Positions 5,583 through 24,247 of a stretch of DNA of 64,000 nucleotides are shown piece after piece (the stretch's first letter is position 1; every line of letters starts with the position of its first letter). The position numbers were made by a program, and so were the translations under genes. Source of the DNA: Candidatus Heritagella intestinalis (GTDB lineage: Bacteria; Bacillota; Clostridia; Oscillospirales; Acutalibacteraceae); contig CAJFQF010000002.1 of assembly GCA_904418995.1 (NCBI GenBank), positions 30,223 through 94,222 of the forward strand, read 5' to 3'. The notes beneath the pieces are model-generated. The model ran no database searches, was not told the DNA's origin, and saw only the letters and a program-made list of their open reading frames with translations.

Positions 5583-5618
5583 GTGATAAAAAACAACAGG
5601 ATAAGGGAGGAAACCTTC

Positions 5619-6251
5619 ATGGACAAACAGGTATTTGTCATGGATCATCCGTTGATTCAGCATAAGCTGACGTATCTGCGGGACAAAAATACCGGCTCCA
5701 AAGAATTCCGGGCGCTGGTCAGTGAAATTGCCACGCTGGTGTGCTATGAAGCCACCCGGGATCTGCCTTTGGAAGAGACGGAAATCGAAACGCCCCTGGT
5801 CAAGGCCAAAACCAAAGTGATTGCCGGGCGCAAGCTGGCTTTAGTGCCCATTCTCCGGGCTGGGCTGGGAATGGTGGACGGTGTGCTGACGCTGGTTCCC
5901 GCGGCAAAAGTGGGGCACATCGGCCTGTACCGGGATCACGAGACCCTGCAGCCGGTGGAATATTACAGCAAGCTGCCCTCTGATTTGCCCCAGAGGGACG
6001 TCTTGGTGCTGGACCCCATGCTGGCCACCGGCGGCTCCGCCATTGACGCAATCAGCATTATCAAGAGGAGTCAGCCCAAGAGCATTAAGTTCCTGTGCAT
6101 CATTGCGGCCCCGGAGGGGGTTCGTGCCCTGACCCAGGCCCATCCGGACGTCCAGGTGTACTGCGCTGCGGTGGATGACCGGCTCAATGAAAACGGCTAT
6201 ATCCTCCCAGGGCTGGGGGATGCCGGCGACCGGATTTTCGGAACTCTTTGA
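5619..6251 (+). CDS. upp: uracil phosphoribosyltransferase
   Basis: [21 protein letters not shown] and DPMLATGGS motifs. ATG 5619 has the RBS AAGGGAGG 8 nt upstream. Confidence 0.95.
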
Positions 6252-6262
6252 CAAATAATTTT

Positions 6263-6301
6263 CTCCGGGCTTTCTTGCGAGGCCCGGAGTTTTGTTTTTT
6301 T
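6263..6301 (+). terminator. rho-independent terminator after upp
   Basis: Stem CTCCGGGC / GCCCGGAG followed by TTTTGTTTTTTT. Confidence 0.8.
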
Positions 6302-6607
6302 GAGCCGCCAGGATGTCTGTCGCTGGAAGGGAAAGGGTTGTTTGAATTTTGTTACGGTTTCTTCGGATTTCCTTTCCAAACCCTTCAAAATTGGGACACA
6401 TTTTAGGGTTATACTGAAATCACAGAAACGGAATCAAACGGAGTGAGTTTTGGAAATAAAAAAATCGCGTTTCTCTCATAACTGCCGGAGCTTACCGGGG
6501 AAGGACGGAATACCGGCCCGGATGGCATGGCAGACCAAGTATAAGTGCCTATTGCAGGCGTTTTCATAAAACCCTTCTTTTTCATTATTCCTTCTCAAAA
6601 ACTAAAA

Positions 6608-6640
6608 GACCGGAGCGAGCGCTTCGGTCTTTTAGTTTTT
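6608..6640 (+). terminator. terminator hairpin of repeat unit A
   Basis: GACCGGAG / CTTCGGTC stem, then TTTTAGTTTTT. One pair is G-T on the + strand and would be A-C on the minus strand. Confidence 0.6.
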
Positions 6641-6933
6641 GTAAGGTTTGACATATGTATTCATAATTTATTGATAAAAACCTCCTAAAAAGTTCTGAAT
6701 GATATCAGAGAATCATCACACTTCCCCGATAGAATAGAGACAGCTTCCAAAAAGAAAGGAGGATGCCAATCAACAAGGTCTCCACGAAATTTCGTGTTTT
6801 GATTTCATAGATTTACTGCCACATGCCTGCCGGAGAAGGACGGAATACCGGGCCGGCTGGCCGGCAGACCAAGTACAAGTGCCCGACAGGGCGTTTCTAT
6901 AGAATTCTTTTTCATAAAACCTCCTTGTTTAAA

Positions 6934-6964
6934 GGGACCGGAAAGCCACCTCCGGTCCCTTTTG
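6934..6964 (+). terminator. terminator hairpin of repeat unit B
   Basis: GGGACCGGA / TCCGGTCCC stem, then TTTTG. Confidence 0.55.
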
Positions 6965-7225
6965 CTATCCAGAAAAATATTCGTTCATAAGTTGTTGATA
7001 AAAACACCCCAGAATATTCCCAGGTTCATCAGAAAACCATCACATTCCGGCGGTATCCTTATGTCAGCAGGAAAGAGAAGCAGACAGGATCAAGACCTGT
7101 TGATTCCTAAATTGATTTACTGCGCCGGAAAGGACGGAATACCGAGCCGGCGGTATGGCAGACCAAGTACAAGTGCCCGACAGGGCGTTTTCATAGATTC
7201 CTTCTTCATAAAAATCCCTTTCTCA

Positions 7226-7270
7226 TGCAGAAGGCCGGGAGCTGGTAATGCTCCCGGCCTTCTGCATTGT
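7226..7270 (+). terminator. long hairpin closing repeat unit C
   Basis: Perfect 17-bp stem TGCAGAAGGCCGGGAGC / GCTCCCGGCCTTCTGCA. Only a weak T tract (TTGT) follows. Confidence 0.45.
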
Positions 7271-7314
7271 GGATTGGAAATTCTTAGAAAATTAGAAAAT
7301 TTGTTCGAAACCTC

Positions 7315-7342
7315 TTGACAGAAATGGAGAAAGTGGTATACT
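7315..7342 (+). promoter_or_regulatory. sigma70-type promoter for the radical SAM gene
   Basis: TTGACA at 7315-7320, 16-nt spacer, TGgTATACT ending at 7342. Confidence 0.6.
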
Positions 7343-7376
7343 GATAAAAACAAACGTTCGAGAAAGAAGGATGCCT

Positions 7377-8642
7377 ATGACGGTCATGGAGAAGCTGGAG
7401 ATTCTTACGGATGCCGCCAAATACGATGTTGCCTGCACTTCCAGTGGGGTGGACCGGGCGGGAAAACAGGGCAGTATCGGGAGCTCGGCGGCCTGCGGGA
7501 TTTGCCATAGTTTTTCGGCGGATGGCCGGTGTATTTCTTTGCTAAAGGTGCTGTTTTCCAACGCCTGCATTTATAACTGCGAATACTGTATCAACCGCTG
7601 TTCCAACCAGGTGCGCCGGGCTTCTTTTACCCCCAGGGAACTGGCGGACCTGACCATGGGGTTTTATCGCCGGAACTATATCGAAGGCCTGTTCCTCAGC
7701 TCCGCCGTGATACGGAATCCCGACTATACCTGCGAGCAGCTTTTGGAAACCCTGCGCATCCTCCGGGAGGAATACCGGTTCCGGGGATATATCCACGCCA
7801 AGGCGATTCCCGGGGCGGACCCTTTATTGCTGTCTCGAATGGGCCTTCTGGCCGACCGGATGAGCGTGAATATTGAGCTGCCTAGCGAGGGGAGCCTCCG
7901 GCGGCTGGCGCCGGAAAAATCCCGCCACTCCATTTTTGCCCCTATGGGTTTGATTTCCGGGAAGATTCAGGAGCATTCCTCGGAGATGGTGCGTTATCGC
8001 CACGCCCAGCCCTTTTCTCCGGCAGGGCAGAGTACCCAGATGATTATCGGGGCCACCCCGGAGAGCGATTGGCAGATTCTCCGGCTGACACAGGGGCTGT
8101 ATCGGAAGTACCGGCTCAAGCGGGTGTTTTTCTCCGCTTATGTGCCGGTAAACACCACGGCCCTGCTGCCTCCGGCGGGCACCCGGCCGCCCCTGCTCCG
8201 GGAGCACCGGCTCTATCAGGCGGACTGGCTCCTGCGGTACTACGGGTTTACAGCGGAAGAGTTGCTGGACGAGGCCCATCCCAATTTCAATCCCCTCATC
8301 GACCCCAAGGCCAACTGGGCCCTGCACCACATGGAGCAATTCCCTGTGGAGGTAAACCGGGCGGACTATGAGGTGCTGCTCCGGGTACCGGGGATTGGGG
8401 TAAAGAGCGCCCGGGCGATTCTCAGGGCCCGGCGTGTGGCTTCTTTGGATTTCCCGGACCTGAAAAAGCTGGGAGTGGTTCTCAAGCGGGCTCAATATTT
8501 CCTCACCTGCCGGGGAAAAGCCATGGAGGGATTGTACGTGTCCCAAGATGCCGTTTTGCGGAATCTCATCACCCAGCAAGGCCGGAACCTGTTGCCTAAG
8601 GAATCCTTCCAGCAGCTTTCCCTTTTTGAAAGCCTTGCCTAA
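7377..8642 (+). CDS. putative DNA modification/repair radical SAM protein (TIGR03916-like)
   Basis: KYDVACTSSG N-terminal signature, CxxxCxxC cluster (CIYNCEYC), C-terminal helix-hairpin-helix-like LLRVPGIGVKSA. ATG 7377 is preferred on RBS spacing. Confidence 0.75.
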   Translation: MTVMEKLEILTDAAKYDVACTSSGVDRAGKQGSIGSSAACGICHSFSADGRCISLLKVLFSNACIYNCEYCINRCSNQVRRASFTPRELADLTMGFYRRNYIEGLFLSSAVIRNPDYTCEQLLETLRILREEYRFRGYIHAKAIPGADPLLLSRMGLLADRMSVNIELPSEGSLRRLAPEKSRHSIFAPMGLISGKIQEHSSEMVRYRHAQPFSPAGQSTQMIIGATPESDWQILRLTQGLYRKYRLKRVFFSAYVPVNTTALLPPAGTRPPLLREHRLYQADWLLRYYGFTAEELLDEAHPNFNPLIDPKANWALHHMEQFPVEVNRADYEVLLRVPGIGVKSARAILRARRVASLDFPDLKKLGVVLKRAQYFLTCRGKAMEGLYVSQDAVLRNLITQQGRNLLPKESFQQLSLFESLA

Positions 8643-19809: not shown

Positions 19810-19865
19810 GAAACTGGGCTTAGGCAGGAGAGGAATAGGGAGAAAGAACGGGTTCTTTTGTAATC

Positions 19866-20061
19866 GTTCATAATTTGGCTAAGAAACCTTTTTGAAATAT
19901 TCGCAGCTTTGAGACAAAAGGGTCATATTTCTAAGGTATACTAAAGCCATGGAAACGAGTACAAGAGCCTGTCCCAACAGGCGATTTCATAAAACCCTTC
20001 TTTTTCATGATTCCTTCTCAAGATCAAAAGGCCGGACTTCGCGTCCGGCTTTTTGATTTTT
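19866..20061 (+). repeat. dispersed, 5'-shortened fourth copy of the 6.5-7.3 kb repeat family
   Basis: GTTCATAATTT box at 19866. AGTACAAGAGCCTGTCCCAACAGGCGATTTCATAAAACCCTTCTTTTTCATGATTCCTTCTCAA is nearly identical to unit A. Ends with a hairpin plus T-run. Confidence 0.65.
20031..20061 (+). terminator. rho-independent terminator (repeat copy D / ybjN-like operon)
   Basis: Stem GCCGGAC / GTCCGGC followed by TTTTTGATTTTT. Confidence 0.7.
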
Positions 20062-20815: not shown

Positions 20816-20898
20816 TTGATTCACCTCCGGCTTTATTCTTTGCTGGAAACCGGTTTCCTATACCGGATATTTTGAAAAACAGAGAGGAGAAAGACTTT

Positions 20899-21570
20899 AT
20901 GTACCGGATCTTTATTGTGGAGGACGACCGGGGAATTGCCCAGGCCATCCAGGAGCAGGCGGAAATGTGGGGCCTCCAGGCCAAATGCGCCGGGGATTTC
21001 CGGAATGTGCTGGCGGAGTTTGCCGGTTACGACCCGCACCTGGTGCTGCTGGACATCTCCCTGCCCTTTTATAACGGGTACCATTGGTGCAGTGAGATCC
21101 GGCAGGTCTCCAAGGTGCCTATTATCTTTATTTCCTCCGCGTCGGACAATATGAATATTGTCATGGCCATGAACATGGGGGCGGATGACTTTATCGCCAA
21201 GCCCTTTGACCAGAGTGTCCTCATTGCCAAAATCCAGGCTTTACTGCGCCGCACCTATGATTTCGCCGCCGCCGTGCCGGTGCTGGAACACCGGGGCGCT
21301 CTGCTGAATACCGGGGATAATACCCTTACCTATGAAGGGGAGCAGGTTTCCCTGACCAAAAATGAATACCGCATTTTGCTGGCCCTCATGGAAAATAAGG
21401 GCAAAGTGGTCAGCCGGGAACGTCTCATGGAGCGCCTGTGGGAAACCGACAGCTTTGTGGACGACAATACCCTGACCGTCAATGTCAACCGCCTGCGGAA
21501 AAAACTGGACGCCGTGGGCCTGCAGGATTTTATCACTACCAAGTTCCGGGTGGGATATATTATTGCTTGA
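20899..21570 (+). CDS. OmpR-family response regulator (BceR/GraR-like)
   Basis: Receiver domain (IFIVEDD, LLDISLP, KP) plus winged-helix output (LTKNEYRILL, TVNVNRLRKKL). Confidence 0.9.
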   Translation: MYRIFIVEDDRGIAQAIQEQAEMWGLQAKCAGDFRNVLAEFAGYDPHLVLLDISLPFYNGYHWCSEIRQVSKVPIIFISSASDNMNIVMAMNMGADDFIAKPFDQSVLIAKIQALLRRTYDFAAAVPVLEHRGALLNTGDNTLTYEGEQVSLTKNEYRILLALMENKGKVVSRERLMERLWETDSFVDDNTLTVNVNRLRKKLDAVGLQDFITTKFRVGYIIA

Positions 21571-24057: not shown

Positions 24058-24104
24058 AAAAAAATAGCCTCACTTGTCTTTGTGACGTGTGAGGCTATTT
24101 CATT
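24058..24104. terminator. bidirectional terminator shared by the convergent cassettes
   Basis: Stem ATAGCCTCAC / GTGAGGCTAT flanked by A7 (T7 on the minus strand) and TTCATT. Confidence 0.7.
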
Positions 24105-24247
24105 GTGCTGGCAGGGCGGCACTTCTGCATCTCAAATACCCAGTGGGTGTGTCGGGTGCCATTTCCGACCTCAGCACATTTCAAACCTACTACTTATACC
24201 CCGCTACAGGTAAGCGGCATCCGTTTTGCGATACATTTTTTAAATTA

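Follow-up and report, generated by a model that had tools for sequence, protein, structure and literature searches.

Three repeat units, here called A, B and C, lie head to tail on the + strand of the intergenic region 6252-7370 in a 64-kb stretch of contig CAJFQF010000002.1 from Candidatus Heritagella intestinalis; that whole stretch is called the window below, and all positions without a locus number refer to it. The gene on the 5' side of the array encodes uracil phosphoribosyltransferase (upp, 5583-6251; Pfam UPRTase, E=9e-82), and the gene on the 3' side encodes a radical-SAM protein of the TIGR03916 type (7371-8642; 666 bits). An earlier reading made from the letters alone, referred to here as the sequence-only reading, had proposed three tandem units filling the interval from upp to the radical-SAM gene, spaced by 335 and 294 base pairs (bp), and a 5'-shortened fourth copy elsewhere. 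The flanking genes are now identified by the two family matches, and the spacings are borne out by exact matches to two core motifs, GGACGGAATACCG at 6503, 6838 and 7132 and GGCAGACCAAGTAYAAGTGCC at 6529, 6863 and 7157, the latter with a chance expectation in shuffles of 0.00. A repeat search of the window returned the same three-copy families at spacings of 333-335 and 294 nucleotides (nt). A covariance model of the repeat, R1, found exactly four copies in the window and none besides, and the fourth, copy D at about 19937-20061 (+), is indeed shortened (R1 match 19926-20019, E=4e-10), its whole 5' domain being missing. The repeat is described here as a family of small RNA (sRNA) genes.

Structure, strand and promoter of the repeat

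Read along the + strand, a full-length copy consists of a promoter-like box, a leader, a 5' domain with the helices P1, P2 and P2a, the linker ACCAAGUACAAGU, the hairpin P3, an unpaired pyrimidine tail and an intrinsic terminator. P1 is CUGYC/GRCAG, P2 has 6-8 bp, and the apical hairpin P2a is CGG-AAUA-CCG. P3 is GCCYR...YRGGC with a variable loop, and the terminator, which is present in all copies, is a long GC-rich hairpin between an A-tract and a U-tract. R1 was built from a 14-sequence alignment with a hand-assigned structure, and all matches were re-aligned to it. Among the 20-21 distinct rows, standard pairs fill 92.1-92.6% of cells, compared with 17-44% once the 3' strand positions are shifted by 1-3 columns. 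Changes on both sides are seen in 8 of the 22 pairs (one in P1, five in P2 and two in P3), and the covariation score of 0.218-0.229, against 0.108-0.116 in shuffles, was reached by none of 500 shuffles. Among the homologous loci (numbered with an L), P2 is UUGCCGG/CCGGCAA in L004, UUAUCG/CGAUAG in L006, UUUAUCG/CGGUGAA with two U.G pairs in L017, CUUACAGG/CCUGUAAG in L021 and GUUUACCGG/CCGGUAAAC in L031c. Minimum-energy folds of single sequences independently give P1, P2 and P3.

The sequence-only reading had described a small hairpin with paired substitutions, and this is P3, with the strands as given there: GCCU/AGGC in A, GCCC/GGGC in B and C, and GCCUGU/ACAGGC in D. It had also described an outer co-varying stem, which resolves into the two helices P1 and P2. 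The pairing proposed for unit C (CGCCGG/CCGGCG) stands and corresponds to P2, but that proposed for unit B (CTGCCGG/CCGGCAG) joins the 5' strand of P2 to the 3' strand of P1 and is rejected because it is not the pairing conserved in homologues. Column identity is 0.96 in the linker, 0.83 in the tail and 0.37-0.43 in junctions and loops. Stems that covary, loops that drift and a linker and tail that are held would together be typical of a base-pairing sRNA. Two additional pairings were considered and discarded: a pseudoknot or self-pairing of GGAAUA in the 5' domain with UAUUCC in the tail is broken in B, C and L002, and an extension of P3 by AAGU/GUUU pairs is either invariant or, in D and L021, broken, with no support from covariation.

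The terminator hairpins differ wholly in sequence between lineages and always keep their folding. They contain 18 G.U pairs on the + strand versus 7 on the - strand, their summed energies are -458 (+) versus -417 kcal/mol (-), and the U-runs lie 3' of the hairpins on the + strand. In the core helices there are 12 G.U cells versus 7 A.C cells, and the two A-to-G changes that separate P2 of L017 from that of L006 are tolerated as U.G pairs on the + strand but would leave C.A mismatches on the opposite one. On the basis of these wobble pairs and terminator energies, the + strand is taken to be the RNA strand.

On the minus strand the tail reads GAGAAGGAAUAAUGAAAAAGAAGGG, that is, a ribosome-binding site and an ATG, and this is conserved in every copy (for example, GAAGGAATAATGAAAAAG). 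The open reading frames (ORFs) that start there with "MKKK" are 5-68 amino acids (aa) long, and after about 11 residues they run across the core in three different frames because the P3 loop lengths differ by non-multiples of 3. A 1-nt insertion in L021 leaves an ORF of 7 aa, and the ORF in L002 stops after 5 codons. The peptides are not hydrophobic, and no conserved plus-strand ORF was seen on reading of the sequences. The frame shifts and truncations thus indicate a constraint on RNA rather than on protein. Public gene calls of 36-68 aa are found antisense to the sRNAs in L031 (1463-1561, 1779-1897 and 2768-2886) and in L016 (2353-2559). These are probably annotation artefacts, since the reverse complement of the tail mimics a ribosome-binding site with its ATG, and there is a practical warning here that gene callers annotate spurious ORFs opposite such RNAs.

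The tail itself, a putative seed, is a pyrimidine stretch of about 38 nt between P3 and the terminator (typically GUUUUCAUAAAUACCCUUCUUUUUCAUUAUUCCUUCUC) that is unpaired in the consensus fold. Nearly every copy holds two modules of the form CAU-N3-8-YCCUUC within it, even where the sequence has diverged, and each module is complementary to a Shine-Dalgarno (SD) sequence that is followed by a spacer and an AUG, often with AAAAAG after it. The modules are CAU-AAAA-CCCUUC and CAU-UAU-UCCUUC in copy A, CAU-AGA-UUCCUUC and CAU-AAAAA-UCCCUUUC in copy C, and CAU-AUAUUUUA-UCCUUUC and CAU-UCAA-UCCUUC in L002. In L031c they are CAU-AAAUA-UCCUUC and CAC-AAU-CCCUCCUU, the CAC in place of CAU being such as would fit a GUG start. 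Module 1 is degenerate in L025 and in copy B, where module 2, CAU-AAAA-CCUCCUU, closely resembles the 16S anti-SD sequence. Neither the complementarity of the tail to SD and AUG, the strongest hint at a function, nor the misleading minus-strand ORF had been recognized in the sequence-only reading.

When the window was scanned by duplex energy, strong matches to the tail were confined to the antisense strands of the sRNA genes themselves. The best non-self partner is a purine-rich stretch, GAGAGGAATAGGGAGAAAGAACGGG, at 19826-19850 (+), with -30 to -32 kcal/mol. It lies in the 3' region of a YbjN-like gene just 5' of copy D and is identical, by eye, to the reverse complement of the seed at about 21 of 25 positions. 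It is loosely or poorly conserved in the strain variant L009 and may be a remnant, a decoy or a chance match.

Seventeen distinct copies were aligned on their -10 box, which is TATACT except in B (TAGAAT), C (TATCCT), and L031b and L031c (TATAAT). Conserved in this alignment are TCA at about -37 to -35, CA at -25/-24, A at -22 and TT at -20/-19, so that the box comprises a TCA/xCA element at about -37 and a second one 11 nt further on, at about -26; it contains no -35 consensus. By-eye fits to the consensus sequences of the sigma-70 (-35), sigma-54 and sporulation sigma E, F, G, K and H promoters failed on the spacings. Because all copies carry the same unusual promoter, this alignment suggests that one activator or one alternative sigma factor co-regulates them, and the geometry would fit activator dependence. 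A gene encoding an OmpR-family response regulator (Response_reg and Trans_reg_C) is located about 800 bp 3' of copy D, at 20872-21570 (+), and its product is a candidate for binding the shared box. The neighbourhood of this regulator is not conserved in L025 or L031.

The leader that follows is purine-rich, 60-85 nt long and variable, and is of two types. Type 1, which contains AAACGGAG, occurs in unit A and in the copies adjacent to a kinase gene, which are described below; type 2, which contains GAAAGGRGG...AUAGAUUUACUG, occurs in B, C, L001, L002, L031b and L031c. Assuming a start just 3' of the -10-like box, full-length RNAs would be about 205-235 nt and short ones about 113 nt.

Copies in the window

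All features of the four copies are on the + strand. The promoter-like box of unit A (6371-6415) has the TCA...CA.A.TT elements and ends in the -10-like TATACT (6410-6415) on which the promoter alignment is anchored. Its A/G-rich leader, with the AAACGGAG stretch conserved among the kinase-adjacent copies, spans 6422-6481 from a predicted transcription start. The 5' domain (6482-6533), for which R1, the pair counts and the single-sequence fold agree, pairs CUGCC at 6482-6486 with GGCAG at 6529-6533 (P1), 6491-6498 with 6518-6525 (P2), and CGG at 6506-6508 with CCG at 6513-6515 (P2a). The linker ACCAAGUAUAAGU (6534-6546), nearly invariant in the family, leads into P3 (GCCU-AUUGC-AGGC, 6547-6559), of which two pairs covary in the family. 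The putative seed, with its two anti-(SD+AUG) modules, occupies 6560-6596; it is conserved, and the consensus fold obtained from the 14 aligned sequences leaves it unpaired. The intrinsic terminator (6596-6645; inverted repeat I1) has 22-nt arms and a U-run. It contains the single G-T pair that the sequence-only reading had pointed out, a G.U on the + strand, and its energy is -31.3 kcal/mol on that strand versus -27.7 kcal/mol on the other.

Unit B has its -10-like TAGAAT at 6730-6735 in the promoter alignment. Its structured core (6816-6892; R1 match 6814-6926, 107.7 bits, and fold) comprises P1 (6816-6820 with 6863-6867), P2 (6826-6833 with 6853-6860), the linker (6868-6880) and P3 (GCCC at 6881-6884 with GGGC at 6889-6892). 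The putative seed follows at 6893-6928, and the terminator hairpin with CCCUUUUGCU at 6931-6969 (inverted repeat I6, and fold). In unit C the -10-like TATCCT is at 7054-7059 in the same alignment, and the junction between P1 and P2 is deleted from the structured core (7120-7186; R1 match 7118-7224, 88.5 bits, and alignment). P1 here is CUGC at 7120-7123 with GCAG at 7158-7161 and P2 is GCCGG at 7124-7128 with CCGGC at 7147-7151; the linker is at 7162-7174, P3 at 7175-7178 with 7183-7186, and the putative seed at 7187-7224. The terminator of unit C (7225-7275; inverted repeat I2, and fold) has perfect 18-nt arms. A terminal GC hairpin with a T-run had been claimed for every unit, and the hairpins are present in all, but the run in unit C is weak (CCTTCTGCATTGT). 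Copy D, with its -10-like TATACT at 19937-19942 in the promoter alignment, is a short form of about 113 nt (19949-20061) that has the GAGUACAAG motif and no P1, P2 or P2a. Its P3 pairs GCCUGU at 19967-19972 with ACAGGC at 19977-19982, its seed is at 19983-20019 and its terminator is at 20022-20061.

The upp gene has a strong intrinsic terminator of its own 5' of unit A (6263-6299, +; an 11-bp stem, then TTTTGTTTTT), and the array is therefore not an extension of the upp 3' untranslated region (UTR). On the other side of the array, the promoter, 5' UTR and start region of the radical-SAM gene (7315-7378) has several blocks in common with the sRNA units (repeat families D5, D8 and D11): GGTATACTGA resembles the -10 region of unit A, CTGATAAAAAC resembles the TTGATAAAAAC box 5' of units B and C, and AGAAAGAAGGATGCCTATG resembles AGAAAGGAGGATGCCAAT in the unit B leader. 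These shared blocks suggest that the array and the 5' region of the radical-SAM gene have a common duplication history. An exact-protein look-up for the radical-SAM protein of the window returned no record.

Distribution, short forms and rearrangement

A two-part exact pattern search detected five loci (L001-L005) in four genomes of uncultured Clostridia. A second pattern, used on metagenomes, gave 10 loci, which were inspected; 7 are real, and the other three (L007, L013 and L014), which lack the rest of the element, were taken as chance matches and dropped. FGGY kinase and bPH_2 proteins then served as handles by which contigs of the nearest relatives were fetched. The homologues represent 10 or more additional lineages of uncultured Clostridia and recur at two sites. 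One is directly 3' of an araB-like FGGY kinase gene (L003-L006, L016-L022 and L031-L033); the other is directly 5' of a bPH_2 gene (L002, L025-L027, L031-L033 and copy D of the window). The RNA is found 3' of the kinase gene in all relatives with a kinase at least 77% identical (L016-L022). Kinase homologues of at most 69% identity (L023, and L024 at 68%) are in ara operons, where R1 and inspection of the contigs found no sRNA, and the bPH_2 relatives L028-L030 have no copy of the RNA. In L031-L033 there are three copies between the kinase and bPH_2 genes, one short and two full-length, and in L025-L027 there is one short form. Named bPH_2 relatives share about 70% identity and belong to the Oscillospiraceae, Candidatus Fimivicinus among them.

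There are 2-4 copies per genome or region, and copies hold orthologous positions across lineages, with a flanking protein 77-100% identical. Nothing similar to the repeat was found in phage, plasmid and viral collections. On this distribution, the family is confined, among the genomes compared, to one narrow clade of uncultured gut Clostridia and is vertically inherited at fixed positions. One weak R1 match, between dinB-like and kinase genes in L004 (4866-4953, -; 17.6 bits, E=0.08, 26% GC), is probably due to chance.

Short forms without P1, P2 and P2a have arisen at least three times, from different parent types (D, L025 and L031a). In these the promoter is joined almost directly to ...GUACAAGAGCC, and of the remaining parts just the GUACAAG motif, P3, seed and terminator are retained. 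They are located at 1463-1561 in L031, 2778-2854 in L025 and 19949-20061 in the window, and their small 5' hairpins differ (GUACAC/GUGUAC in L031a, UUGC/GCAA in L025). Copy D occupies the genomic position that is equivalent to that of a full-length copy in L002. Over the 125 nt that begin with the -10 box and run through the terminator, it is identical to the strain variant L009, and the flanking intergenic DNA differs. Because the short forms keep the tail, and because copy D matches L009 exactly despite the differing flanks, P3, the tail and the terminator stand out as the functional core.

Units have also been rearranged. In L012 (1356-1468 onward), which comes from a strain related to that of the window, unit B is broken inside the seed (...TTCTTCA|AAAGCAG...) and runs into a serine-recombinase fragment that lacks about the first 30 residues. 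In L008 (861-963), from the same sample as L012, there is a hybrid unit whose 5' domain is C-like and whose seed and terminator are B-like; L008, L009 and L012 all derive from ERZ1643246. Units may have recombined with one another or with a mobile element; alternatively, the repeats may have led to mis-assembly. With its full-length copies, independent short forms and tandem arrays recombining between strains, the family is a natural series from which the evolution of sRNA dosage and modular architecture could be learned.

Function and relation to known small RNAs

The sequence-only reading had favoured plus-strand, independently terminated sRNAs of one family, with no resemblance to a known riboswitch or sRNA, and covariation, the strand tests, synteny and the lack of an Rfam match all support that view. 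We consider it somewhat probable that the copies are co-regulated, independently transcribed and terminated sRNAs that act in trans, the tail blocking translation initiation and the paralogues adding to one another. In such a model, each unit would be a gene in its own right, producing a small regulatory RNA from the plus strand, and the tail of this RNA would pair with the translation-initiation regions of target mRNAs. Pairing would block 30S binding and so repress translation, and additive action of the paralogues would produce a dosage effect.

Several points weigh against this model. That the units are transcribed, with the 5' ends and RNA sizes given, is a prediction from sequence, as are the regulator, the pairing with targets and the repression; the promoter lacks a -35 element and was matched to no sigma factor. 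The duplex-energy scan of the 64-kb window found no convincing trans target, and complementarity to SD and AUG is generic and carries little information on specificity. In predicted folds of full-length transcripts the purine-rich leader often pairs with the seed, which may mean that the seed is masked or may be a trivial effect of base composition. The core has modest folding z-scores, between -1.4 and -2.0 on the + strand and between -0.6 and -1.1 on the - strand. The pair counts come from alignments fitted to R1, in a small family of about 12 lineages, and because some rows are paralogues or strain variants, inherited changes have been counted more than once.

Among the other explanations, a plus-strand structured RNA that binds a protein through its U/C-rich tail or its ACCAAGUACAAGU linker, as a sponge, decoy or scaffold (with Hfq, S1 or another RNA-binding protein as the candidate partner), is rather unlikely but would account for what pairing leaves unexplained. 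The linker is the best conserved segment (0.96), it is kept in all short forms, and it has no obvious complementarity role. Such a model would also be in keeping with the want of a specific target in the window and with a seed so generic that it might fail to discriminate among mRNAs. However, the module logic of CAU, spacer and YCCUUC is kept despite divergence in B, C, L002 and L031c, which base pairing explains better, and GGA motifs of the CsrA type are not conserved (GGC in L006, GGU in L021). We think it improbable that the units are cis-acting leaders, that is, riboswitches or attenuators in which the 5' domain senses a ligand and the tandem copies form stacked attenuators before the radical-SAM gene. 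A structured 5' domain with conserved loop nucleotides does precede an intrinsic terminator, and the RNA is 5' of and co-oriented with the radical-SAM gene and, in L002, L025, L031 and copy D, with the bPH_2 gene. Every unit nevertheless has its own promoter-like box, and the radical-SAM gene has a near-consensus promoter (TTGACA-16-TATACT) 3' of the unit C terminator. The one ORF beyond the terminator in L004 that reaches 100 aa is convergent, the short forms lack the putative sensor and keep all else, and there is neither a conserved alternative antiterminator pairing nor an Rfam riboswitch match.

The SD and ATG conserved in every copy, along with the 36-68 aa ORFs annotated in L016 and L031-L033, could be taken to indicate a minus-strand small protein (MKKKG...) or a type I toxin, with the plus-strand RNA as its antisense antitoxin. 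This is very unlikely: the ORFs vary from 5 to 68 aa in three frames and stop after 7 and 5 codons in L021 and L002, the peptides, unlike type I toxins, are not hydrophobic, and both the wobble pairs and the energies of the terminators speak for the plus strand. Least credible is the alternative raised in the sequence-only reading of a structured selfish repeat, such as a miniature inverted-repeat transposable element (MITE) or a repetitive extragenic palindromic (REP)-like element, that has spread within the genome and has no RNA function. Although several copies occur per genome, in tandem, and units recombine, as in the hybrid of L008, no terminal inverted repeats surround the units, the strong inverted repeats being terminator hairpins only. 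The low copy number, the orthologous positions and the compensatory changes that preserve helices likewise disagree with that alternative, and phage, plasmid and viral collections offer no match that would support it.

Within the model of translational repression in trans, the optional 5' domain, with its GG-N-CGG-AAUA-CCG loop, might conceivably be a ligand or protein sensor that gates the seed, for example by freeing it from the purine-rich leader, though we regard this as a long shot. If it were so, full-length copies would be signal-gated repressors and short forms constitutive versions, a riboswitch-like system of trans-acting translational regulators in gut Oscillospiraceae-like Clostridia. 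Almost nothing is known of post-transcriptional regulation in these uncultured organisms, and the analysis yields a defined sRNA family for which the covariance model is usable, the strand is clear, there is a clear candidate for the seed and a shared promoter motif points to one regulator. The proposed mechanism is familiar; what is added is a new family, not a new principle.

As in intrinsically terminated sRNAs in general, there is a promoter-like box (17 copies), the terminators favour the + strand and no minus-strand ORF is conserved. The Rfam scan that the sequence-only reading had proposed places no known element at the repeats. At gathering thresholds, Rfam 15 finds in the whole window only a skipping-rope RNA elsewhere (RF02924 at 24103-24179, -; E=1e-13, 66 bits where the gathering score is 36.7). 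With permissive settings, the region 6200-7400 shows sub-threshold matches only, mostly to terminator hairpins and none near the gathering score.

The csRNAs of Streptococcus pair with the comC mRNA from SD to AUG, and several copies, which act additively, are needed (PMC4507080). The present family is like them in having several related sRNA genes per genome, each with its own promoter and terminator, and an unpaired stretch complementary to the SD-AUG region, a resemblance in mechanism only. The promoters would also be alike in being of an activator type. In csRNAs this takes the form of a direct repeat just 5' of the -10 box, as Halfmann et al. reportedly described in 2007. A search of the window for the CiaR box (TTTAAG-N5-TTTAAG, at most 2 mismatches) found no site near the units, and its 2 matches compare with 6.1 expected by chance. 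Unlike the csRNAs, the present family has the covarying 5' domain P1-P2-P2a, two tandem anti-(SD+AUG) modules and the invariant ACCAAGUACAAGU linker, and its hosts are an uncultured clade of Clostridia rather than streptococci.

LhrC1-5 of Listeria monocytogenes are likewise multicopy, have redundant CU-rich motifs that bind SD sequences and block translation, and are all co-induced under the control of one two-component system, LisRK (PMC4132741). The present RNAs resemble them in being multicopy and in carrying redundant CU-rich motifs in each molecule. In LhrC, however, these are three short UCCC motifs in two loops and an inter-hairpin spacer, whereas here the seed is one long linear tail whose complementarity extends to the start codon; no UCCC was found in the P2a or P3 loops of the present family, and neither sequence nor Rfam links the two. 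Other trans-acting sRNAs of low-GC Gram-positive bacteria, among them RsaE/RoxS and FsrA, also mask SD sequences with unpaired C/U-rich motifs (PMC4132741), but they are single-copy, have a different fold and use CCCC/UCCC motifs, and no Rfam match connects them with the units. CsfG, a conserved, sporulation-specific Firmicutes sRNA of endospore formers, has a non-housekeeping promoter, of the sigma-F/sigma-G type (PMC9147052). Compared with it by description only, the present family is similar in having a promoter without a -35 element of the sigma-70 type, and different in being found in one narrow clade only. Given that there is no Rfam match and no CiaR box and that the architecture differs, the repeats are a previously uncatalogued sRNA family, one whose proposed mechanism is like that of csRNA, LhrC and RsaE and which is a member of none of them.

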